From an uncultured Alphaproteobacteria bacterium (GTDB lineage Bacteria; Pseudomonadota; Alphaproteobacteria; CAAHEQ01; UBA3637), in the NCBI GenBank assembly GCA_934203105.1, contig CAKPYQ010000002.1, positions 8,277 to 72,276 on the forward strand: 64,000 nucleotides of DNA, read 5' to 3'. Positions 1-52,477 of this stretch are shown piece after piece; positions within the stretch are counted from its first letter, which is position 1; each line of letters starts with the position of its first letter. The notes under the pieces were generated by a model. The model saw only the letters and a program-made list of their open reading frames with translations, made no database searches and was not told the origin of the DNA. The position numbers and the translations under genes were made by a program.

Positions 1-399
1 AGCGTCTTTATTGCCCGCAAAGCAGGTGACTGCCAATTGTTCTGGTTCAAAGCCCAAAACTTTGGTTAATAATTCATAACTCATATGAATTGATTCATTT
101 TTAAAATAATCGCCTAACGACCAGTTACCCAACATTTCAAAGAATGTTAAGTGTGATCTGTCGCCGACTTCGTCAATGTCGCAAGTTCTGATACAACGTT
201 GAACATCGGTTAATCTGTGTCCTTCGGGGTGTTTTTCGCCCAATAAATACGGGACCAACGGGTGCATTCCGGCGGTTGTGAATAACACTGTCGGATCGTT
301 TTCCGGAATCAAAGAAGCGTTTTGAATTTCTTTGTGTCCGTGTGATTTAAAAAAGTTTAAATAAGCACTGCGCAATTCTTCATAAGATAATTTTTTCAT
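1..399 (-). CDS. alaS: Alanyl-tRNA synthetase, N-terminal part. The gene continues beyond the window start.
   Basis: Reverse-strand translation from the ATG complement at 397-399 gives [72 protein letters not shown]..., the typical AlaRS N-terminus. It is absent from the ORF track because it is truncated at the window edge. Confidence 0.85.
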
Positions 400-547
400 T
401 TTCCATATCCTTTAATTTAAAAAAACATTATTTTTGGGATTATATATGCTTTTTTACCAAAGCGCAAGTTTTTTAATAAATAATTTTATCGCCTTTGTTT
501 AAAGTCGATGCGAACGCATTTTTTTTTAAAACAAAGGCGATGTTTTT

Positions 548-3296
548 TTATTTTACGCAGGTAAATTGAGCTGCTGTCGTCGGGTGAACTTCCGCTCCGT
601 TGTAGCCGTCATAAGCAAATCCCGCTTCGTTGGTACAGGAATAAGAGTAGGGCAGGCGATTGTGACGGTCAGATCCCGGATAGGCCAACCAATAATAATT
701 GATGTTATTGATGCCGCAATAATTTGTCGTTCCGGAATCAACCAATGTGTTACAAGAGACACGACCAGTAGTAACTTCTTTCAAAGTCGGCAATCGTCCA
801 CCTAGGTTGGCGCACGTTTTTTTTGCATTTGCAAAGGTTGCTTTACCAACAGGGCATTTTGGATAAACGCATCTGGTAGTGCCGGCCATGTATGAATTCA
901 GACACGTCCAGCCTGGACCGCATTCGTCTTCATAATATGGGCAGACGCCGGCAGAAGCCTCTACATATACCGTGTTGCAACCGGAACTAACGGCTTTCGG
1001 ACAGCATAAGCCGGCCTTGCTGTTATATGGCTGATCGTATGGACAGCAGGTGTTGTCAGAAGCGTTCCAAGTTCTGCTTGCCATTTTACAACAATAATCG
1101 TCCTTATCCGGATCAATAGCCGTTGAACAAGTGTTTGTTTCCGGAAAATAGTTATGACATAGCGTGCAGACGGCTTTATCTTGGCATTCTTTGTTTACAA
1201 CAACTTGACCCGTCGCACAGCAAGCAGACCCGCTCCACAGACGACCGGCAAGCGTACAGCATTCTGCTCCGTTTTCTGGAACATTGCCATAGCAGGTATT
1301 TGTTGCGGCGTCATATGCTTGGCATGTCGTGCAGACGGCTTTATCTTGGCATTCACTGTTTACAACAACTTGACCCGTCGCACAGCAAGCAGACCCGCTC
1401 CACAAGCGACCAGCCGCTGCACAGCATTCTTCGCCATTTTCTGGAATATTGCCATAACAGGTATTTGTTGCTTCTTCGTACGTTTGACATATCGTGCAGG
1501 TCGCTTTATCTTGGCAAGTGCCATTTACAACAACTTGACCCGTCGCACAGCAAGCAGACCCGCTCCACAGACGACCTGCCGCTGCGCAGCATTCTTCGCC
1601 ATTTTCTGGAACATTACCATAACAAGTATTTGTTGCTTCATCATATGCTTGGCATGTCGTGCAGACGGCTTTATCTTGGCATTCACCGTTTACAACAACT
1701 TGACCCGCGGCGCAACAGGCTGACCCGCTCCACAGACGACCGGCCGCCGCGCAACAATCCGCTCCGTTTTCGGGGATATTCCCATAACAAGTGTTTGTTG
1801 CGGCGTCATACGTTTGACATATCGAGCAAGCAGCTTTGTCTTGGCATTCACCGTTTACAACAACTTGACCTGTTGCACAGCAAGCAGACCCGCTCCACAG
1901 ACGACCAGCTGCCGCGCAACACTCCGCGCCGTTTTCGGGAATATTGCCATAGCAAGTGTTTGTTGTGGCGTCATAAACTTGACATACCGAGCAAGTGACT
2001 TTGTCTTGGCAAGTGCCATTTGCAACAACTTGACCCGTGGCGCAACAGGCTGACCCGCTCCACAGACGACCGGCAGCAGCACAACACTCCGCCCCGTTTT
2101 CGGGGATATTCCCATAACAAGTGTTTGTTGCGGCGTCATACGTTTGACATATCGAGCAAGCAGCTTTTACTTCGCAACGGCCGTTTACAACGACTTCATT
2201 GCTTTTGCATTGACACGTCGCCGTATCCGCGCCGATTGGTGTACCGGCCGGACAAGAACAACCTTTTGTTTGGGAATTTCTGACCAACGGCAAAACACAT
2301 TTGGGAATACAAACGCCGTCGTAAATTTCATTGGACGCGGTATCGCATTCGCAACGATAAGACAATAAATTGCAAATTTCCAACATTTGACAATGGCTGT
2401 TTTGGGTGCATTCAACGCAACCCGTGCCGTCAACCCAATAATTTAATCCCTCCGGACAGACGCATTTGTCGTTTTTTTCGATTTGGTTGAGCGGACAAAC
2501 GCAGGTATTATTTTCGATGATGTGGCTTTTTTCACATTCGCACGTTTCTTCCAAAGCGTGTTTAGGCGTTGACGCCGGACATACACATCGGTTGTCTCGA
2601 CAAAATTTAGGTGCCGGACACGCCGGAACACAATAGGTTACGTTTTCGACGCTCTTTAAAGAAAAATAAAAACTCATTTTTTGATGATCGTTTAAACAAA
2701 TTTCGGGGCCGCCTTGGATTTCTTTATCTTCATCATTCCAAACAGTCACTTTTTCAACTGCCGGATTTTCCAAGTTCAACGTGTGTTTACAAACCGCCTT
2801 TCTGACATCTTCAACGTCAACGACAAAGCCGTCAATTTCATCGGTTTTGAAAACTTGCATAGGAAAGGTAGAATCCGGATGTGTCAATTCGGTGTCGATT
2901 TGTTCACCGCCTTGCCAATCGTCCAAGCTTTTATTTGACGTTGCCACGCTGGTTGCATGTAACATTACATCGCTCCACAGGTCGTTAGAGGATTTTTTGG
3001 CCATGCTATATTGATAAATGACAAGCCCGCCGATGGACAGCACACCGATGATCGCCAGCACGCCCAGCATTTCAAGCATGCTACGACCTGCATTATGTCC
3101 CAAGAGGGGACGCGAAAATTTTCGCGCGGCGCGTCCCCTCTTGCCGGCGTTTTCGCAATCGTCATTCTGAGCGCTTGCGAAGAATCTCTCAACTTCCCGC
3201 GCATCATTCACCCGATCAAAAAAATGATTTTTGCAGCCCCCACGCCCCAACTCAAAAATCATTTTTTTGATGTTTAATAATTGATTTTTATTCATT
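548..3296 (-). CDS. Giant cysteine-rich secreted or surface protein with a type IV prepilin-like N-terminal motif (G|RSMLEMLGVLAIIGVLSIGG), paralogue 1
   Basis: A long ORF with AGGAGA 7 nt upstream of the ATG at 3296 (MNKNQLL...). A consensus promoter lies just upstream. The N-terminus matches the N-methylation (prepilin) motif, with Glu at +5 after Gly and an AIIG core. The body is a 55-aa, 8-Cys module repeated seven times, followed by a Cys-rich C-terminal region. Confidence 0.7.
1150..2310. repeat. Seven tandem copies of a 165-bp (55-codon) coding repeat inside the cysteine-rich gene
   Basis: The motif gcagacggctttatcttggcattc and its variants recur at about 1164, 1329, 1497, 1661, 1826, 1991 and 2156. 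The protein shows CQDKAxC..CYGNxPENGxECCAAAGRLWSGSACCAxGQVVxNG repeated seven times. The many ORFs in other frames here (for example 1123-1998 and 1181-1723) are repeat artefacts. Confidence 0.85.
3100..3270. repeat. Cluster of perfect palindromes (REP/RPE-like) lying in frame in the leader-coding region of the cysteine-rich gene
   Basis: The arm caagaggggacgcg at about 3102 pairs with cgcgtcccctcttg, with a nested cgcgaaaattttcgcg. The arm ttcgcaa is paired with ttgcgaa around 3153-3180. A 19-bp perfect inverted repeat atcaaaaaaatgatttttg / caaaaatcatttttttgat lies at 3212-3270. Confidence 0.6.
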
Positions 3297-3349
3297 TTTA
3301 TCTCCTTATTCAGCGTCGACAAATAAAAAAAGAAATAATTATCTTTTAT

Positions 3350-3379
3350 ACTATACACAACCGATTGTTTACTGTCAAG
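3350..3379 (-). promoter_or_regulatory. Near-consensus sigma70 promoter for cysteine-rich gene 1 (TTGACA, 17-bp spacer, TATAGT)
   Basis: The reverse complement reads cTTGACAgtaaacaatcggttgtgTATAGT. It sits about 50 nt upstream of the ATG at 3296. Confidence 0.5.
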
Positions 3380-3469
3380 AGGTATTTTAACGCCAAAATC
3401 AAAAATAACCGATTGAAAATAAATAAATGTTGCCGGAAAAATAGGTTTATAAAAGAAAGTATGTTAATT

Positions 3470-5245
3470 TTACGCTTTTTGAGCCATGAATAAATATCCT
3501 TGGCAGGGCGCTTTGTTTTCCTGACGCAACGTAACTTCTTGGGCTGTAATCTCATCAAAGCCGGCATTTTTCAAGGCCGAATTGATGATGTCAAAGCCGT
3601 GTTGATAACGTCCGTTCGGTTGAAGTGTTATTTGATCGGGATTTAGCGCTTTTTCCACTGTAAAAATAAAAGTGCCCCTCGATGTTAAATATTTATGTAC
3701 TTCTTTAATAATATCGTCTAATTTGTTGATATAACAAAAAACATCTGCAGCGACGATTAAATCAAAAGCTTGCGATACATTTTGCAGATAATCCAAAATG
3801 TCCATCGTAAAAAGCGCATCATAAATATGCTTTTTTTCGGCTTTTTGAATCATTTTTTGTGACATATCGACGCCCGTCAAGCGCTTGGACTCGGTGCGCA
3901 ATAAAGCGCCGCTTAAACCGGTGCCACAGCCTAAATCCAACACGTTTTCAAATGTTTTGCCCGCCGTTTTTTGCGCAATCAATTGCGGAATTTGGCAATT
4001 TAAAATTTGCATTTTTTCATCATAGGTATCCGCAAACGCATCATAAAATGTTTGCGTATAGGCAAAATCAATGTCCGTCCCCGACGATTGTCCGTTTAAA
4101 GCGTTGTTTGTATGAATTGCCAGCGGATTATCGGGAAAGTTTTTTACCCAACCGGAAGCGTAAAGTAATGCCGTTTTGGGTTCTGTTTCAAACCATTTAG
4201 GCAGCATATTTGCCAAACGCAAATGAATAATAGATTGCAGTTGTTTTTGTCCCAAAACCTTAAAATAAAGACCGGCAGCTTCTTCAAAATTGCCCAAATC
4301 TTCCAAGGCAATGGCTAAATTAAACGCAGCTTTTGTATCCGTGGGGTCGATGATAAAAACGTTTCGATACATTTCGAGTGCTTCCATAACGCGATTTTGA
4401 CGATATAACAAAGCCCCTAAATTATTGTAAGCGGCGACATTGTTGACATCTGTGCGCAATACGTCGCGATAGGCTTGTTCAGCCAAATCGGGATTTTCAT
4501 TTTCCAACAACATCGCTTTTTCAAAATAAGCGTCTGTACAAAAACGGTTTACTGCGATTGCTTTTTCAAACGCCGCAAGCGCGTCATTTTTTTGACCAAG
4601 CAGATTTAAAACTTTACCGTATTCAACAAAAAGAAAATCAACATTGTTTGCAATTTTTATTGCTTTTTCAATATATTGTAATGATGAATTGATGTTGTTA
4701 TTTAATCTGTTTTGTACCGATGTTTGATAAAGAGCCTGTACAGAATTCGGATCAATTTTTAAAGCCTCAGCCAATAAATTTTCGGCTTGATTTAAATTGT
4801 TTTGTTGCCGTTCTAACAGAGCCTTGTTCACATAAGCCAACACCATATCGGGGTTGATTTGAATGGCTTTGTCAAAAGCCGTACGTGATTTATCCAATTG
4901 TCCCATTTGGCGATAGATATTTCCCATATTATTTTGGCTTTCGGGCATATCGGCAATTTTTTCATATATAGCTAATGCTTCGTTCAACTTCCCGCTTTCC
5001 TGTAAAGCCACAGCCAAAGAATATTGAAAATCTTTGTTTTTGGGATCGGCCAGCGTGGATTGATAAAGCAATTGACACGCTTCATCAAAAATGCCTTTTG
5101 ACAAGGCAATTAAACCCAAAAAATACAGCGCTTGCGGCAACGCCGGCGATAAATTTAAAACTTGGCGAAAGGCCTTTTCGGCTTCGTCTAATTGTCCGGC
5201 CGCATACAGGTTAATTGCGTTTGATAGTAAGAGGTTTTGATTCAT
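3470..5245 (-). CDS. TPR-repeat protein fused to a C-terminal class I SAM-dependent methyltransferase domain
   Basis: The N-terminal roughly 400 aa consist of repeated 34-aa TPR-like units. The C-terminus carries VLDLGCGTGLSG (SAM motif I) and DLIVAADVFCY (motif II/III). Confidence 0.7.
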   Translation of the reverse strand: MNQNLLLSNAINLYAAGQLDEAEKAFRQVLNLSPALPQALYFLGLIALSKGIFDEACQLLYQSTLADPKNKDFQYSLAVALQESGKLNEALAIYEKIADMPESQNNMGNIYRQMGQLDKSRTAFDKAIQINPDMVLAYVNKALLERQQNNLNQAENLLAEALKIDPNSVQALYQTSVQNRLNNNINSSLQYIEKAIKIANNVDFLFVEYGKVLNLLGQKNDALAAFEKAIAVNRFCTDAYFEKAMLLENENPDLAEQAYRDVLRTDVNNVAAYNNLGALLYRQNRVMEALEMYRNVFIIDPTDTKAAFNLAIALEDLGNFEEAAGLYFKVLGQKQLQSIIHLRLANMLPKWFETEPKTALLYASGWVKNFPDNPLAIHTNNALNGQSSGTDIDFAYTQTFYDAFADTYDEKMQILNCQIPQLIAQKTAGKTFENVLDLGCGTGLSGALLRTESKRLTGVDMSQKMIQKAEKKHIYDALFTMDILDYLQNVSQAFDLIVAADVFCYINKLDDIIKEVHKYLTSRGTFIFTVEKALNPDQITLQPNGRYQHGFDIINSALKNAGFDEITAQEVTLRQENKAPCQGYLFMAQKA

Positions 5246-5392
5246 TTATAACGTCCTTTTAAATGCCAATAGTAAGGGCTTTTGATTTTGATTTCAAGTT
5301 AAATTTAACAACTTTGTCACAAAAGTTGAATTGCGTTTTGTTAATACGATGATATACTTCAATTAAAATATAACGATGAGAAGGATTTTTTT

Positions 5393-5836
5393 ATGGAAAA
5401 CATCAATAAAAAAGCGATTTCGGAATTATCAGAATTGTTGCACGCGAACAATTTGCGGGAAATTGAGTACGAAGCGGATAATGTCCGCATTCGGGTGGTG
5501 GCTAATTTGCCCGAAGAAAAAGGCCTGACGGTGGCGCCGGTTATGTCGGCTGCCAATGCGCCTGTTTCGGCTCCGGCAAAGCCTGCTGCTGATGCGGATA
5601 AGGAAAATCAAGTAAAATCACCGATGGTGGGTGTTGTTTATTTGTCGGCGGATCCGTCTTCTGCGAACTTTGTGCGGGAAGGGGATTTGATCGGGGTCGG
5701 TCAAACTTTATGTTTGATTGAGGCGATGAAAACATTTAATCCGGTGAAATCGACAAAATCCGGACGCGTAAAAAAGATTTTAGTTCAATCGGGTATGCCG
5801 GTCGAATTCAATGAACCTTTATTTGTGATTGAATAA
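5393..5836 (+). CDS. accB: Biotin carboxyl carrier protein of acetyl-CoA carboxylase
   Basis: The EAMK biotinylation motif is present (CLIEAMKTFNPV). An Ala/Pro-rich linker precedes it. accC follows immediately. Confidence 0.85.
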   Translation: MENINKKAISELSELLHANNLREIEYEADNVRIRVVANLPEEKGLTVAPVMSAANAPVSAPAKPAADADKENQVKSPMVGVVYLSADPSSANFVREGDLIGVGQTLCLIEAMKTFNPVKSTKSGRVKKILVQSGMPVEFNEPLFVIE

Positions 5837-5840
5837 GTAA

Positions 5841-7193
5841 ATGATGTTTGAAAAAGTTTTAATTGCTAATCGCGGAGAAATTGCTTTACGGATTCACCGA
5901 GCCTGTAAAGAAATGGGAATAAAAACGGTTGCCGTTCATTCGACGGTTGATGCGGACGCTATGCATGTTCGCTTGGCGGACGAAGCCATTTGTATCGGGC
6001 CGGCGCCTGCGCGTGATTCGTACTTAAATAAAGCGGCGATTATCAGCGCGGCATTGATTTGCGGAGCAGATGCTATTCACCCCGGCTATGGTTTTTTGTC
6101 GGAAAATGCGGATTTTGCGGAAATGGTCGAAGCGCACGGATTAACCTTTATCGGCCCCAAAGCGTCAATGATCCGCAAAATGGGAAATAAAGTTTTGGCG
6201 CGTGAGGCTGCTCAAAACGCCGGATTGCCAGTGTTAAGCGGTTCTGACGGTGCTGTTTTAAACTTGGACGCAGCAACGATTATTGCCGACAAAATCGGCT
6301 ATCCCGTTTTGGTCAAAGCGGCAAACGGCGGCGGCGGAAAAGGAATGAAAGTTGCTTTCAGCCGTGATGAATTGGAAAGCGCGTTTGTTTTGGCGCAAAA
6401 GGAAGCCAAAGCCGCATTCGGTGATGATACGGTTTTTATTGAAAAATACCTGCAAAACCCGCGCCATATAGAAGTCCAGATTTTGGCCGATAATTATGGG
6501 CATGTGGTTTGTTTAGGTGAACGCGATTGTTCTTTGCAACGCAATAACCAAAAGATTTTGGAAGAAACGCCGTCGCCGGCTTTGAACAGGCAACAACGAG
6601 AAGCTTTGTTTGAATCGGCCAGAACGGCGATTGAAAAAATCGGTTATTCGAATGCGGGGACTTTGGAGTTTTTATTCGAAGACGGCAAATTTTATTTTTT
6701 GGAAATGAATACGCGTCTTCAAGTCGAACACCCGATTACGGAAATGGTGACCGGTATTGATATTGTTCGGGAGCAAATTCGTTTGGCTGCGGGCGCTCCG
6801 TTGGGGTACAGTCAAAAAGATGTTCGCATAGAGGGTTGTGCCATTGAATGCCGGATTAACGCCGAAAATCCGGAAACGTTTATTCCAAGCCCCGGCAAAA
6901 TCGGTTGTTGGCATGTTCCCGGCGGTTTATGGGTTCGTGTTGATTCGGCGATGTTTTCGGGGTATAAAGTACCGCCTCAATATGACAGTTTGGCCGCTAA
7001 ATTGATTGTGTTTGGTCGTACCCGCAACGGTGCTTTGATGCGCTTGCGCCGTGCTTTGGACGAATTTGTCATTGACGGCATTGAAACGACAATTCCGTTG
7101 CATCAACGCTTGGTTCACGAAGCCGATTTCATCGACGGGCAATACAATATTCATTGGTTGCAACATTTTTTGGAAAAAAATACCAAAAAGTAG
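5841..7193 (+). CDS. accC: Biotin carboxylase
   Basis: MMFEKVLIANRGEIALRI... contains the ATP-grasp biotin carboxylase motifs. The protein is 450 aa. Confidence 0.9.
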   Translation: MMFEKVLIANRGEIALRIHRACKEMGIKTVAVHSTVDADAMHVRLADEAICIGPAPARDSYLNKAAIISAALICGADAIHPGYGFLSENADFAEMVEAHGLTFIGPKASMIRKMGNKVLAREAAQNAGLPVLSGSDGAVLNLDAATIIADKIGYPVLVKAANGGGGKGMKVAFSRDELESAFVLAQKEAKAAFGDDTVFIEKYLQNPRHIEVQILADNYGHVVCLGERDCSLQRNNQKILEETPSPALNRQQREALFESARTAIEKIGYSNAGTLEFLFEDGKFYFLEMNTRLQVEHPITEMVTGIDIVREQIRLAAGAPLGYSQKDVRIEGCAIECRINAENPETFIPSPGKIGCWHVPGGLWVRVDSAMFSGYKVPPQYDSLAAKLIVFGRTRNGALMRLRRALDEFVIDGIETTIPLHQRLVHEADFIDGQYNIHWLQHFLEKNTKK

Positions 7194-22348: not shown

Positions 22349-24223
22349 ATGAAAAACAATCAATGCAATAATAAAATCAATCAAACCGGCCGGTCGATGC
22401 TTGAAATATTAGCGGTGCTTTTAATTATGGGAATGCTGTCGATTGCGGCATTATTGGGCTTTAAATACGCGATGGACAACCTCAAAGCGAACGAGATTTT
22501 AAATAATGTGCGTTTGGCGGCAGCGGTCGTTTTGCAACATGAAGAAATCTTGGTTGAAAGCGACGGAAGCATTGATATTTCAGAATTTCAAAAAACAATT
22601 TTGTACGATATGTCGGCCGAGCAGGTGGGGGAAGAATATGCTTTTGCGATCAATGTGTTTGAAGTTCAAAAAGGCGTTTGCGATGCGGTTATTCGCCGTG
22701 CTGATAATCAATATTTGATTCGTTTGGACGGGGAAGATACGACCGAATGCCAAGACAAAAACAAAATGCAATTTATATTTAATATGGACGAGGCGTGTCC
22801 TTCAAATTGTCCGCCGGAGCGTTGTTGTAATAAAAACAAGTGTTGCAGCGAAGGTCAAACGTGCATTAACGGCCGGTGTGTAGATGAAAATTTATGTGAC
22901 AATTGGGACACACAACAAGTTTGCGGAACGTCGACATGTTGTGATAAAGACAAATTTTGTTGCGCGGATAAATGTTGTGAAACACCGTTTTGTTCGGCGG
23001 ATCAAAGCAAATGTTGCGGAACGGCTTTGTTGGGGGGCGTTGAAACGAACTTGATTCCCGACGCAAGCAATCCGTCCGAATGCGTTTGCCCCACGGTGAA
23101 TGGAACCCGGCTGGTATTAAAAAACGGTTCTTGCGAATGTCCGGACGCCGGCTTTACTTTGGTCGATGGGGCGTGTGTTCGCTTTAATTGCGACGAAGGA
23201 ACGGGCGGTAATACATACGAATGCTATATTAATGGTAAATTGTGCGGACATTTTTGTACTGCCGAAGCTTCGGATTGTGAAAACGGTATTTGCCGGCAAA
23301 AAGATTGTGTTGCAGGACAACCGTTGCTTTACCATGGTCATCCGGGATATTATTACGGATGCAAAAAAGAATATAACTCTGATGTAACATGTTATATGAC
23401 GACCAAAGATGGTGTATACAAGTGCTATCGAAATGATGATGATTTATTGTGTGCTCTAGCAAAAATGAATGCGTCGGGTGAGCTGTATTTTATCTATGGA
23501 ACATGCGACGATAACATTTGCAAAGCGATTGATCCTAATGCTGTGTTTATGCGTTGGGGGGATGCAAACAGCTATAATGGCGGGTGTTTGTTTGATGATA
23601 ACTTGTTGTGTACGCCTTACGGCACGAAATATTGGACTTGTTTTAAAAACGGCTATAAATGCGGTACGGAGTGCACAAATCCGTTAAACTGCGGAACTTG
23701 CAACGATTATGATTGTCCGGACGGATTGAGCTATAACAGAGAGTTAAAACGTTGTGAAACAGAAACTTATTACTGTGACGTAACACAAGGAAAATGGTCA
23801 GAAGTTTGTTATATGAAAAGTGACAATTCGCGATGCGCTACAATTAACAGCAATGCTCCTGAGAAGGGTTTTGCTTACGGAACATGCGTGGCTGATAAAT
23901 GTACCGCTGCGGGTATGAAGTTTGCATATGTGAGCGAGGAAAATTATTGGGGCTGCCTTGATGAGAATACGGGGATTAGTTGTATCCCTAATTATTCTGT
24001 ATGCTATTATAATGGCAAGCTTTGCGGAAACTATTGTCAATTGGGAGGGACAGAGTGCAAACAAGCTTATCAAAAGCAATGTGCCGCAGCGGGATACTGC
24101 CCGCAAACCGGTTATTTAATTGATGATTGCGTATGCGATGGGCAAGAAAGCGAAGTTGACGGCAAACGTTATTGTTGTCCGGAGGGACATCGATATGAAA
24201 ACGGCGCTTGCACGATGTTGTAA
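22349..24223 (+). CDS. Giant cysteine-rich secreted or surface protein with a type IV prepilin-like N-terminal motif (MKNNQCNNKINQTG|RSMLEILAVLLIMGMLSIAALLGF), paralogue 2
   Basis: It has a short basic leader ending in Gly, Glu at +5 and a hydrophobic helix. A domain of about 100 aa follows. The next roughly 480 aa contain about 90 Cys in irregular Cys-rich modules. Confidence 0.7.
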   Translation: MKNNQCNNKINQTGRSMLEILAVLLIMGMLSIAALLGFKYAMDNLKANEILNNVRLAAAVVLQHEEILVESDGSIDISEFQKTILYDMSAEQVGEEYAFAINVFEVQKGVCDAVIRRADNQYLIRLDGEDTTECQDKNKMQFIFNMDEACPSNCPPERCCNKNKCCSEGQTCINGRCVDENLCDNWDTQQVCGTSTCCDKDKFCCADKCCETPFCSADQSKCCGTALLGGVETNLIPDASNPSECVCPTVNGTRLVLKNGSCECPDAGFTLVDGACVRFNCDEGTGGNTYECYINGKLCGHFCTAEASDCENGICRQKDCVAGQPLLYHGHPGYYYGCKKEYNSDVTCYMTTKDGVYKCYRNDDDLLCALAKMNASGELYFIYGTCDDNICKAIDPNAVFMRWGDANSYNGGCLFDDNLLCTPYGTKYWTCFKNGYKCGTECTNPLNCGTCNDYDCPDGLSYNRELKRCETETYYCDVTQGKWSEVCYMKSDNSRCATINSNAPEKGFAYGTCVADKCTAAGMKFAYVSEENYWGCLDENTGISCIPNYSVCYYNGKLCGNYCQLGGTECKQAYQKQCAAAGYCPQTGYLIDDCVCDGQESEVDGKRYCCPEGHRYENGACTML

Positions 24224-49950: not shown

Positions 49951-51231
49951 ATGTCATCGCTTTTTTGTTTTGAAAGCTTTAATTGGAACGAGCAGACTGG
50001 GCTTTTATCTTTGTTTTATTCGTGTCAAGGCTATCGCTTTGAAGAGCGGATTGCGTTCCCCGACGCTCCCTTTTGTTTAACGCAAGAGCGCCAAAAAGCG
50101 CTTGATCAAGTGTTCTTTTTATTGCATATTGCGGCCGGGGTCAGTTATTATAAAGCTTTCGGCAATCCCGCAATCCAAATCCGCAGCGGTGTTTTGACAA
50201 AAGATCAAGCTGCCTTTTTCAATGATTTTTATTATTTCGGATTGGGGCAATTTGCGGCCGAAAACCATTTAAAACTAAAGTTTGATTTTCCTTTTGGATC
50301 GGACAGAGAAAAAATGTTTGATTTACCGCTTGGATCGGGCGCGTTTGTTCCGGTTGGCGGTGGCAAAGATAGTTGCGTTACAATTACGCGTTTACAGCGC
50401 GCGCAAATTCCAACGACTTTATTTTCAGTCAATACAGCGCGCCCGATTGAAGATTGCAAACGAATCTCCAACTTACCGGAAGTGACGATTTGGCGTACAA
50501 TCAGCCCGGTTTTATTAGAAAACAACGATCATTTTTTAAACGGGCATGTGCCCATTTCCGGCATCATCGCTTTTATCAGCGCGGCGGCGTGCATTTTATA
50601 TGATAAGCGTTTCGTTGTAATGAGCTGTGAAGGGTCTGCGGACGAAGCGAACTTTAAGGATGTCAACCATCAATGGAGCAAATCATCGGCTTTTGAGCTT
50701 GCTTTTGGTGCTTTAATGGCAAAGATATTGCCTTCTTTTCGATACTTTTCATTGCTGCGATCGATGAGCGAAATGCAAATAGCGGCCTCTTTTGCCAAAA
50801 ACTGTGCCGATTACTTTGATGTGTTTACCAGTTGCAATCACGCTTTTCATATTGACAAAAGCAAACGATTGTTGCGTTGGTGCGGAAAATGCGATAAATG
50901 CCGATTTGTTTTTTTGATTTTAGCGCCTTTTATGCCGAAAGAAAAATTGATTGAAATTATCGGTCAAAACCCGCTTGATGATCCGGCGCAAGAGCAGGGC
51001 TATTTGGCTTTGCTGGGGCTTGGGCAATCAAAACCGTTTGAATGCGTCGGCACTTATGATGAATGTCGGTTGGCTTTTTTAATGTTGTCCAAGCGTGAAA
51101 ATTGGCAATCGGATTATTTAATTCAAAAATTGTCACCTCTTTTAAAAGATTATTCAATAGAAACGTTAGAAAAAAAGGTCTGGGCAACCGGCAGAACAGA
51201 TTTGATTCCAAAGGAGTTTTTAAATGTTTGA
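49951..51231 (+). CDS. Hypothetical PP-loop (SGGxDS-like GGGKDS) protein, translationally coupled to murD. Candidate MurL-type UDP-MurNAc-L-Ala-L-Glu epimerase.
   Basis: The protein is 426 aa. VPVGGGKDSCVTI resembles the ATP pyrophosphatase P-loop. Its stop overlaps the murD start by 8 nt. The functional assignment is an inference from context and motif only. Confidence 0.4.
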   Translation: MSSLFCFESFNWNEQTGLLSLFYSCQGYRFEERIAFPDAPFCLTQERQKALDQVFFLLHIAAGVSYYKAFGNPAIQIRSGVLTKDQAAFFNDFYYFGLGQFAAENHLKLKFDFPFGSDREKMFDLPLGSGAFVPVGGGKDSCVTITRLQRAQIPTTLFSVNTARPIEDCKRISNLPEVTIWRTISPVLLENNDHFLNGHVPISGIIAFISAAACILYDKRFVVMSCEGSADEANFKDVNHQWSKSSAFELAFGALMAKILPSFRYFSLLRSMSEMQIAASFAKNCADYFDVFTSCNHAFHIDKSKRLLRWCGKCDKCRFVFLILAPFMPKEKLIEIIGQNPLDDPAQEQGYLALLGLGQSKPFECVGTYDECRLAFLMLSKRENWQSDYLIQKLSPLLKDYSIETLEKKVWATGRTDLIPKEFLNV

Positions 51232-52477
51232 AGGCAAAAAAATTGCAATATGGGGAATGGGAAAAGAAGGGCAATCGTTATTAAAGTATTGCAATAATAA
51301 TGGATTACAAGCAACTGTTTTCGAAGGAAAAGATATTGATTTATCCGGCTATGATGTGTTATTGAAAAGCCCCGGGATCAGCCTGTATAATGACAGCCTG
51401 CACAAGGCTTTGGAGCAGGGGATCGAGCTTTGGTCTTCTACCAACATTTTTTTGCACGAAAAAGACAACGCAATGAAAACGATTGCCGTAACGGGAACAA
51501 AAGGCAAAAGCACAACTTCGTCTTTATTAGCGCATATTTTACGCTCATTCGGGTATTCGGTGGGCTTTGGGGGCAATATCGGCCAACCGTTGATTGATTT
51601 AATCGGTCAAAAATATGATTTCTTGGTGGCTGAATTATCCAGTTATCAATGCGCGGATTTGATGTATCCTTTTGACATTTCCGTCGTTGTTAATTTGTAT
51701 CCGGAGCATATCGATTGGCATCAAACACACGATCGGTATTATGAGGATAAATTGCGTTTAATTCGTATTCGGGACAGCGGACAAAAAGCCGTTTTAAATT
51801 GGGAAAATACCGAAACTTTGGTTCGAACAAAAGGTGAAAAAGACGTCATATTCTTTAATAATCCGACGGGGTTTCATTTGCAAAACGGTTGGGTAATGGA
51901 CGCACAAAATCCTTTATTTAAAATGGAGGAAATATCGAACTTAAAGGGCGTTCATAATTTTGAAAATATTTGTGCTGTATTGACTGTTTTAAAAGAGCTG
52001 GGGCTTTCATTAGACAATGTTAAAACCTACATTCAATCTTTTGAACCTTTGGCGCACCGTTTGCAAACGGTAAAAATGGTGCAGGGCGTTCGCTTTGTCG
52101 ATGACAGCATTTCAACGACCCCCGAAACATCTTTGGCGGCATTAAAGGCTTTTGCATCAGCAAGCCATATTTATTTGCTGGTCGGCGGATATGATCGCCA
52201 TCAAGACTATGGCGTTTTATTGTCATATGTATTTGAAAATAAGGATAAAATAACTTTGGTTACAATGCCAATTACCGGCAGTCAAATAGCTGCACAGGCT
52301 GATTCAATGGGGCTGGATGTCATCAATGCGGGCAGTGTTGCTGACGCCGTTCATTTAGCGCAAGATCGGGCAAGCTCAGAAGATGTCATTTTATTATCGC
52401 CCGGTGCCCCCAGTTATCATGCTTACAAAAACTTTGAAGCGCGTGGCGAGGATTTTAAAGCAAACATATGGGATTAG
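51224..52477 (+). CDS. murD: UDP-N-acetylmuramoyl-L-alanine--glutamate ligase (MurD family; possibly MurD2)
   Basis: MFEGKKIAIWGMGKEG precedes the Mur ligase P-loop VTGTKGKSTTSSLLAHIL and central and C-terminal Mur ligase domains. It is not embedded in a dcw cluster. Confidence 0.8.
   Translation: MFEGKKIAIWGMGKEGQSLLKYCNNNGLQATVFEGKDIDLSGYDVLLKSPGISLYNDSLHKALEQGIELWSSTNIFLHEKDNAMKTIAVTGTKGKSTTSSLLAHILRSFGYSVGFGGNIGQPLIDLIGQKYDFLVAELSSYQCADLMYPFDISVVVNLYPEHIDWHQTHDRYYEDKLRLIRIRDSGQKAVLNWENTETLVRTKGEKDVIFFNNPTGFHLQNGWVMDAQNPLFKMEEISNLKGVHNFENICAVLTVLKELGLSLDNVKTYIQSFEPLAHRLQTVKMVQGVRFVDDSISTTPETSLAALKAFASASHIYLLVGGYDRHQDYGVLLSYVFENKDKITLVTMPITGSQIAAQADSMGLDVINAGSVADAVHLAQDRASSEDVILLSPGAPSYHAYKNFEARGEDFKANIWD

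Follow-up and report, generated by a model that had tools for sequence, protein, structure and literature searches.

What kind of protein is encoded by the cysteine-rich gene at one end of a 64,000-nucleotide (nt) stretch of DNA from an uncultured alphaproteobacterium, and does the tandem array that it contains change between strains? The stretch (contig CAKPYQ010000002.1, positions 8,277 to 72,276), referred to below as the window, carries this gene, gene 1, on its minus strand. The encoded protein combines a pilin-like N-terminal module, a long Cys-rich middle part that includes the repeats, and a separate C-terminal domain. We consider it probable that gene 1 encodes a modular surface protein or adhesin of the type IVb-like pilin family in a gut alphaproteobacterium, with a stalk that recombines and varies in length. 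The features on which this reading is built are listed below in window coordinates, from 5' to 3' in the gene, with lengths in nt or amino acids (aa).

3350-3378, minus strand: sigma-70-like promoter, TTGACA-17 nt-TATAGT, 11/12 matches in a consensus scan and a consensus match only
3301-3307, minus strand: Shine-Dalgarno sequence AAGGAGA, 5 nt 5' of the ATG at 3295, from reading the sequence
548-3295, minus strand: gene 1 coding sequence, 915 aa with 96 Cys (10.5%), stop codon at 548-550, from the list of open reading frames (ORFs) and their translation
3086-3295, minus strand: open 'leader' of 70 codons up to Gly70, a 5' cassette common to paralogs, with hairpins at 3218-3268 and 3104-3140
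2630-3085, minus strand: pilin-like module, aa 71-222, with the hydrophobic helix RSMLEMLGVLAIIGVLSIGGLV, Glu at +5, and an alpha/beta head containing C169 and C200
2159-2629, minus strand: non-repeated Cys-rich region, aa 223-379, with CxCP-type motifs, ending in the partial unit tail NEVVVNGRCEVKAA, from the translation
1169-2158, minus strand: array of six canonical units of 165 nt, 55 aa and 8 Cys each, from repeat searches and unit alignment
1994-2158, 1829-1993, 1664-1828, 1499-1663, 1334-1498 and 1169-1333, minus strand: bounds of the six canonical units, 5' to 3' in the gene
1004-1168, minus strand: seventh unit, strongly diverged, with all 8 Cys present and 40% aa identity, alignable only with indels
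551-1003, minus strand: C-terminal domain, aa 765-915, possibly lectin-like, KKTCANLGGRLPTLKEV ... FTCVK

The array is exact in its geometry. Tandem Repeats Finder reported a period of 165 nt over 1155-2158, with 6.1 copies, 84% matches, 0% indels and a score of 1210, and a second repeat search returned six copies at exact 165-nt spacing. The units are of constant length, lie head to tail and in frame within one minus-strand ORF, and share the invariant Cys pattern C-x2-C-x9-C-x10-CC-x11-CC-x10-C; chance was rejected as the source of the repeat. A preliminary description of this DNA had placed seven near-identical units at 1150-2310. Its unit, 165 nt encoding 55 aa with 8 Cys, is real, but the count and the placement had to be revised. 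Six canonical units occupy 1169-2158, and the diverged seventh lies at the opposite end of the array from the 5' part of the claimed interval (2159-2310), which holds no unit: in register that part reaches 29-36% nt identity, and only its last ~14 codons resemble a unit tail. Aligned at the nucleotide level, the units fall into six in-register copies as described, and the supposed near-identity gives way to pairwise identities of 77-90% for nucleotides and 80-89% for amino acids; exact internal repeats reach at most 74 nt in the window array, and in other alleles the longest measure 47-83 nt. Nor does the first canonical unit stand apart from the centre, as had been thought: its identity to unit 2 is 90%, which makes it no outlier, and between strains it is the edges that are conserved and the interiors that are mosaic.

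Nei-Gojobori estimates over the six units gave nonsynonymous divergence (dN) of 0.06-0.14 (mean 0.09) and synonymous divergence (dS) of 0.27-2.2 (mean 0.90), with dN/dS of 0.05-0.26. Synonymous divergence near saturation (mean dS ~0.9) shows the 165-nt units to be duplicates of long standing, which purifying selection has kept similar in protein sequence; they are neither recent nor rapidly homogenised. The near-identity that marks concerted evolution is lacking here, and ongoing homogenisation, which the preliminary description had proposed, is not supported as a fast process. Several ORFs overlap the array in other frames or on the other strand (1123-1998, 1181-1723 and 2020-2283 on the plus strand, 1855-2139 on the minus strand). 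Given the low dN/dS of the main frame, which carries the coding signal, we rejected them as genes and, in agreement with the preliminary description, read them as by-products of the repeat. Phase variation was likewise rejected, since the unit is a multiple of 3 and the reading frame is never broken. Promoter-like matches recur every 165 nt on the plus strand, the non-coding strand of the array (1154-1182, 1319-1347, 1484-1512 and 1649-1677), and two terminator-like matches lie 330 nt apart within it (1326-1339 and 1656-1669); these are repeat artefacts and no independent signals.

The unit itself has few relatives. Pfam and NCBIfam gave no match across the array, and the 55-aa unit fits no curated Cys-rich profile (EGF, TNFR, GCC2_GCC3, Galaxin). 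When 1.84 billion representative proteins were searched with a profile built from the unit, 11 reached E <= 1e-3; three of these were below 1e-30, and all three are pilin-signal proteins of gene 1's family. Scans of JGI metagenomes gave no confirmed relative with protein patterns and one unrelated phage-like contig only with a 20-nt unit motif. Judged by these searches, the 8-Cys unit appears essentially private to the lineage. A further pilin-signal protein, P0076 (516 aa), contains a different repeat of ~38 aa around the core CC-x-AAGREW-x(3-6)-CCPEGV; because this core is shared, the half-motif CC..AGR.W...CC..G would predate the 55-aa unit and have been reused in other repeat architectures.

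The number of units was compared across orthologous loci in other gut metagenomes, which have the same accC-accB, TPR-methyltransferase and alaS neighbours and all come from short-read assemblies. The canonical units in each are as follows.

Locus L001 (protein P0001): 6 units
Locus L087 (protein P0045): 6 units
Locus L085 (protein P0050): 4 units
Locus L002 (protein P0002): 3 units
Locus L086 (protein P0051): 3 units
Locus L083 (protein P0004), and protein P0003: 1 unit, then a different C-terminus

With the window included, the syntenic loci hold 6/6/6/4/3/3/1 units, and the expectation that unit number differs among strains, and changes in frame through recombination between units, was borne out by these counts together with the hybrid units described below. 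Differences are concentrated inside the array. Between the window and L001, both with six units, there are 95 mismatches in 990 nt of array versus 21 in 2062 nt of flanks; in register, identity is complete in the last canonical unit, reaches 94.5% in the first and drops to 79-88% in the interior units. The last canonical unit is 100% identical in four alleles (window, L001, L002 and L085), the seventh, diverged unit is 98-100% identical between strains, and the flanks are 98-100% identical around mosaic interiors. A map of unit thirds shows that each allele is a different mosaic and that the three six-unit alleles differ without any change in length.

Two hybrid units locate the exchanges. In L002, unit 0 begins with 7 nt that correspond to L085 unit 0 and continues as L085 unit 1, with the crossover inside a 40-nt identical tract. 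In L086, unit 1 follows L085 unit 1 as far as nt 84 and, beginning at nt 146, L085 unit 2, with the crossover inside a 61-nt identical tract. The remaining units of L002 and L086 are identical to L085 units, and the aligned segments of L085 with these two loci, which reach partly into the array, are 99.0-99.4% identical. As the two hybrid units are different, they point to two independent one-unit deletions (or reciprocal duplications) by out-of-register exchange or slippage. Steps of one unit are also seen elsewhere: sister proteins built on a 53-aa unit come in lengths of 1452, 1505, 1558, 1611 and 1664 aa and also of 769/822 aa (clusters of at least 90% identity), and a pair of 797 and 852 aa within a cluster of at least 90% identity differs by one unit. 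Conserved edges with mosaic interiors fit sporadic unequal exchange, which short identity tracts may limit. Variation in the length of a surface protein by repeats is a familiar and conventional mechanism, and the array is both real and variable; the exchange may depend on RecA, the variation may have an antigenic role, and differences in length or antigenic make-up could be of selective value. Contig L001 begins inside the conserved pilin N-terminus (its position 1 is window 3052), and four 204-aa fragments from Logan/ENA (P0043, P0044, P0046 and P0048) begin inside the diverged seventh unit. Such assembly breaks at gene 1 suggest that the 5' cassette and the array are assembly hazards, and the family is therefore probably under-represented in metagenome-assembled genomes (MAGs).

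The pilin character of the protein resides at its N-terminus. By inspection, gene 1 bears a class-III-like signal, ...LLGHNAG/RSMLEMLGVLAIIGVLSIGGLV (the slash marks the site), in which a Gly precedes a hydrophobic tract with Glu at +5. The signal site G/RSMLEML is invariant, and across 11 diverse members, only 21-38% identical, the invariant residues are G(-1), R(+1), E(+5), L and V together with C169 and C200. These two Cys are positioned as for the disulfide of a pilin D-region, and the bond is putative. An AlphaFold2 (AF2) model of the module, from the 11-member alignment, has a predicted local distance difference test score (pLDDT) of 82.4 and a predicted TM-score (pTM) of 0.75; its N-terminal helix extends over 48 residues (6-53), and four strands make up the sheet. 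Searched with Foldseek, the model matched CofA (9iuf_A; E 3e-3, probability 1.00, TMq 0.59) and TcpA (8uhf; probability 0.80-0.97), two full-length type IVb pilins that are its only high-probability PDB matches, with modest E-values; the full-length AF2 model gave the same top matches. In the full-length model, the repeat units (pLDDT 57-75) each form two beta-hairpins and a short helix, and the C-terminal 180 residues fall below a pLDDT of 40. The non-repeated Cys-rich region is 98.1% identical between the window and L001 and has no Pfam match, and Pfam and NCBIfam searches of gene 1 returned no family at threshold.

The C-terminal domain shows local similarity to the C-terminal end of P0033, another member of the family (E 2e-5). 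A jackhmmer search with the domain against the fetched proteins and locus ORFs returned orthologues only, and a PDB sequence search gave nothing significant, its best match being to actinoporins at E 0.03, which was treated as chance. The domain alone found no match in a set of 5.8 billion proteins, a search suspected to keep only proteins of comparable length; all matches of another search were 505-1505 aa long.

The 5' end of the gene is shared more widely than the rest. The cassette is 92.7% identical at the nucleotide level to paralog locus L088 over window positions 3310-3123, and 88-93% identical between paralog loci in which the pilin heads are only ~27% identical in amino acids. The extents compared were the following.

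Window 3086-3310, minus strand: 5' cassette of gene 1
L088 117-554: 5' cassette of the paralog locus
L002 5986-6413: 5' cassette of an orthologous locus

Alleles of the same locus have either a short middle segment of the cassette or one ~150 nt longer. The RNA of the leader has a fold z-score of -3.2, with two strong hairpins and motifs resembling repetitive extragenic palindromes and miniature inverted-repeat transposable elements (REP/MITE-like); Rfam holds nothing for the cassette. In the full-length AF2 model the leader is unstructured (pLDDT ~30), and its mismatches are distributed over the codon positions as 9/7/15. The cassette may encode a prepilin leader of unusual length, or it may be a structured 5' untranslated region. 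Upstream of it, the Shine-Dalgarno sequence is unchanged across the alleles compared and in L088, and the promoter-like sequence is invariant in five alleles.

Gene 1 belongs to a large family. The pattern GRS[MI][LIV]EML[GA]V occurs at no fewer than 593 places in GTDB species representatives, at least 573 of them confirmed by tblastn. Almost all lie in MAGs from the guts of humans, ruminants and rabbits that bear the label Alphaproteobacteria. Two matches in bins labelled Lactobacillales and Acidaminococcaceae look like binning contamination. Among the top 80 matches, genomes carry several copies, up to 9 in one MAG. The best match among GTDB representatives is 45% identical, from which it follows that the species of the window is absent among them. 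A survey of family neighbourhoods at 80 loci (L003-L082) showed dispersed, stand-alone genes, with no neighbouring ORF cluster present at more than 3 of the 80. Literature searches on RF32 Alphaproteobacteria pilins found no papers, and those on cysteine-rich tandem-repeat adhesins found nothing relevant. Exchange between family members may be reflected in two chimeric alleles, which are listed with their paralog reference.

L083 1015-3711 (protein P0004), and protein P0003: chimeric alleles
L088 1067-2980: paralog reference

In the chimeras, the 5' part, from the upstream TPR-methyltransferase gene through unit 1, is 97.8% identical to the window, and the 3' part with the downstream DNA is 94.6% identical to a P0023-type paralog; ~23 nt are common to both at the junction, and the chimeras come from two samples. 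They are either real products of recombination between paralogs or chimeric low-coverage assemblies.

How firmly can gene 1 be called a pilin? The assignment is moderate and not strong, the Foldseek E-value being only 3e-3, and several facts weigh against simple membership of the pilin family. Neither Pfam N_methyl (PF07963) nor TIGR02532 (IPR012902) matches gene 1 at E <= 1, an Arg stands at +1, initiation at the ATG at 3295 would give a leader of 70 aa, well beyond the length of known prepilin leaders, and no peptidase or pilus-assembly gene is found in the 64-kb window or within 4 kb of 80 family members. At the distal end, Lectin_C (PF00059) scores below threshold (14.5 bits versus 22.6, E 0.062, profile positions 2-46 only), which leaves the lectin-like reading of the C-terminal domain a lead that no structural model supports. 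The missing signatures, the Arg, the long leader, the missing pilus genes and the modest E-value would suit a protein whose hydrophobic N-terminal helix is an ordinary signal peptide or a signal anchor that stays uncleaved, its Cys-rich body being periplasmic or on the inner membrane and its repeats a structural spacer unrelated to any filament. We judge such a protein unlikely, given that G(-1), R(+1), E(+5) and the two head Cys have stayed invariant at 21-38% identity, that the signal motif recurs in at least 573 confirmed matches, that a confident model sets a 48-residue helix on a beta-sheet with CofA and TcpA as the only high-probability matches, and that sub-threshold N_methyl matches fall at the right place in paralogs P0023 and P0013, which score 14.2 and 13.3 bits against a cut-off of 21.2.

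The copy-number differences meet an objection of another kind. Some comparison alleles have 2.5-4x coverage (SPAdes contigs L083, L085 and L087), and the inter-unit identity tracts of 47-83 nt can exceed the default top k-mer of metaSPAdes, which is 55, so that some unit deletions could be assembly collapses. Since the duplicates are old (inter-unit dS ~0.9) and many assemblies break in the array or at the 5' cassette, as the 204-aa fragments and the start of L001 illustrate, one might suppose that the array is ancient and fixed and that the differences arise from short-read collapse through identical tracts. Collapse is unlikely, however, in L001 and L002, because these six-unit and three-unit alleles are MEGAHIT k141 contigs, where a tract of at most 62 nt cannot mis-join. 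The three six-unit alleles moreover differ as mosaics at constant length, two different hybrid junctions occur in two samples, the sister protein falls into five one-unit length classes across NCBI, ENA and JGI sources, and the window allele was assembled identically in 3 contigs; we hold a fixed array to be very improbable. A programmed variation system, in which recombination of paralogs and array would switch the displayed C-terminal modules, as in pilE/pilS although with whole modules, would draw on the 5' cassette that is 88-93% identical between loci with heads ~27% identical, on the several paralogs per genome, and on chimeras P0003 and P0004, which join the gene 1 5' part to a P0023-type 3' part at ~23 shared nt. 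It strikes us as highly doubtful, as no silent cassette, recombinase, invertase or G4-type (G-quadruplex) element came to light, the paralogs examined each possess start signals of their own, and the chimeras are low-coverage metagenome contigs. A wider proposal would place gene 1 in a large unrecognised repertoire of stand-alone modular pilins that have in common a 5' cassette, conserved and structured, made up of the promoter-proximal leader and the class III signal, and that may diversify Cys-rich and lectin-like modules by recombination within arrays and between paralogs. We offer it as a speculation with little more than an outside chance; if true, a commensal lineage would vary the surface of its pilus tips module by module, and the prepilin leader might be regulated or of exceptional length.

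The reading that we favour, a pilin-family surface protein with a length-variable stalk, can be put as a sequence of conditional steps. Prepilin peptidase may cleave at the class-III-type signal, and the signal with the pilin head would anchor the protein either within a type IV filament or at its tip. The non-repeated Cys-rich region, the six 55-aa 8-Cys modules and the one degenerate module would together form a stalk, presumably disulfide-bonded, that may serve as a spacer in an adhesin and hold out a distal C-terminal domain, which is probably the ligand-binding part. Identical tracts of ~40-80 nt between units would permit occasional homologous exchange or slippage out of register, by which whole units would be added or removed in frame and hybrid units formed. 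Strains accordingly differ in the length of the stalk, with between 1 and 6 units, and in how its interior units are pieced together as mosaics.

A second family member, gene 2, lies in the window. In-frame arrays of other periods occur at five other family loci, which indicates that tandem module amplification is not confined to gene 1 and recurs in the family.

22349-24223 of the window, plus strand: gene 2, 624 aa with 67 Cys, 14-aa leader MKNNQCNNKINQTG/RSMLEILAVLLIMGMLS, followed by a different Cys-rich body
L006 655-1220: in-frame array, 195 nt x 2.9
L024 3285-3412: in-frame array, 45 nt x 2.8
L024 6196-6547: in-frame array, 63 nt x 5.6
L044 4861-6058: in-frame array, 471 nt x 2.5
L045 734-889: in-frame array, 63 nt x 2.5
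L067 7037-7501: in-frame array, 78 nt x 5.9

Gene 2 has no Pfam match, and by eye its C-terminal part is similar to P0007-type proteins. The window is otherwise ordinary chromosome, with accBC, groEL, clpB, serS, yidC, murD, msbA, gltX and others, and is identical to ENA contig ERZ28614815 scaffold_201; the exact 915-aa product is recorded in 3 contigs. Gene 1 stands beside a divergent accC-accB pair, with the TPR-methyltransferase gene upstream and alaS downstream, and an Rfam search of window positions 1-6000 gave no credible match. A MurL-like protein is encoded at 49951-52477 on the plus strand (UDP-MurNAc-L-Ala-L-Glu epimerase model, E 4e-107, 358 bits versus a cut-off of 700), directly upstream of, and overlapping, a murD-type ligase gene. 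The MurD2/MurL route to L-Glu peptidoglycan is known from Xanthomonadales, and the pair hints at such a route in an alphaproteobacterium.

Bacteria of this kind occur in human guts, Hadza and Nepali samples among them, and in animal guts, and to our knowledge almost nothing is known about how these uncultured Alphaproteobacteria interact with their hosts. The gene 1 locus indicates that the lineage encodes many unannotated pilin-like proteins with stalks that are probably disulfide-rich, and that strains differ in stalk length and mosaic make-up at a locus otherwise 98-100% identical. The array can serve as a strain marker of a size suited to the polymerase chain reaction, and the family supplies candidate adhesins. 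Standard pilin signatures miss the family, and short-read assemblies break, or may collapse, at such loci. The repeat itself is of moderate interest, the family of higher interest.

Among known systems, the major type IVb pilins CofA and TcpA give the best structural matches to the head of gene 1, and its hydrophobic N-terminus, RSMLEMLGVLAIIGVLSIGG, resembles the type IVb consensus, which in TcpA reads xTLLEVIIVLGIMGVVSAG. The closest parallel in overall plan is offered by CofB of the CFA/III (colonization factor antigen III) pilus of enterotoxigenic Escherichia coli (ETEC) and TcpB of the V. cholerae toxin-coregulated pilus (TCP), in which an N-terminal type IVb-like pilin module leads into an extended region rich in beta structure, and a distal domain for binding is presented at the tip of the filament (PMC6048534). 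Gene 1 is proposed to follow the same order of pilin module, stalk and distal domain. Unlike CofB and TcpB, with which it shares no sequence homology beyond the signal, its stalk is a tandem array of variable number that would be disulfide-rich, it stands alone among housekeeping genes with no pilus operon and with many paralogs per genome, and it has Arg at +1 and possibly a very long leader.

Modular type IV pilins such as PilB and PilC of S. sanguinis, in which non-pilin modules are grafted onto a pilin module, form a second point of comparison, and an InterPro survey of them records a pilin with 12 copies of one motif (Raynaud et al. 2021, PMC8179133). Gene 1 likewise joins a pilin module to grafted modules. 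Copy-number polymorphism lies outside the concept of Raynaud et al. (PMC8179133), whose survey set is defined by IPR012902, a signature that the gene 1 family fails at threshold. The 8-Cys module also differs in having no database signature and in being found in ~11 of 1.84 billion representatives.

Small disulfide-knotted modules in series recall the eukaryote-type EGF-like, TNFR/furin-like and GCC2_GCC3/ephrin-receptor-like modules, from which the 55-aa unit differs in its distinct Cys pattern and in having no Pfam match. Sister proteins show sub-threshold NCD3G/TNFR-like matches and precomputed PF07699 matches at their C-termini, and the stalk has weak Foldseek matches to Pfs25/Pvs25, LRP2 and the insulin-receptor CR domain (probability at most 0.14), which are not significant.

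Repeat-containing surface proteins that vary in copy number are well known from alpha C/Rib of group B Streptococcus, SasG/Bap of S. aureus, Esp of Enterococcus and Als of Candida, whose arrays are usually more than 95% identical at the nucleotide level and change fast. Gene 1 resembles them in its in-frame units, in a strain-variable number produced by recombination in unit register, and in its conserved edges and shuffled interiors. It differs in that its units are diverged (77-90% identical, dS ~0.9), and exchange would therefore be limited to short identity tracts. Its modules are moreover Cys-rich and apparently lineage-private, and their carrier is pilin-like, in contrast to the LPXTG- or glycosylphosphatidylinositol (GPI)-anchored carriers of those proteins, and belongs to a large unannotated family.

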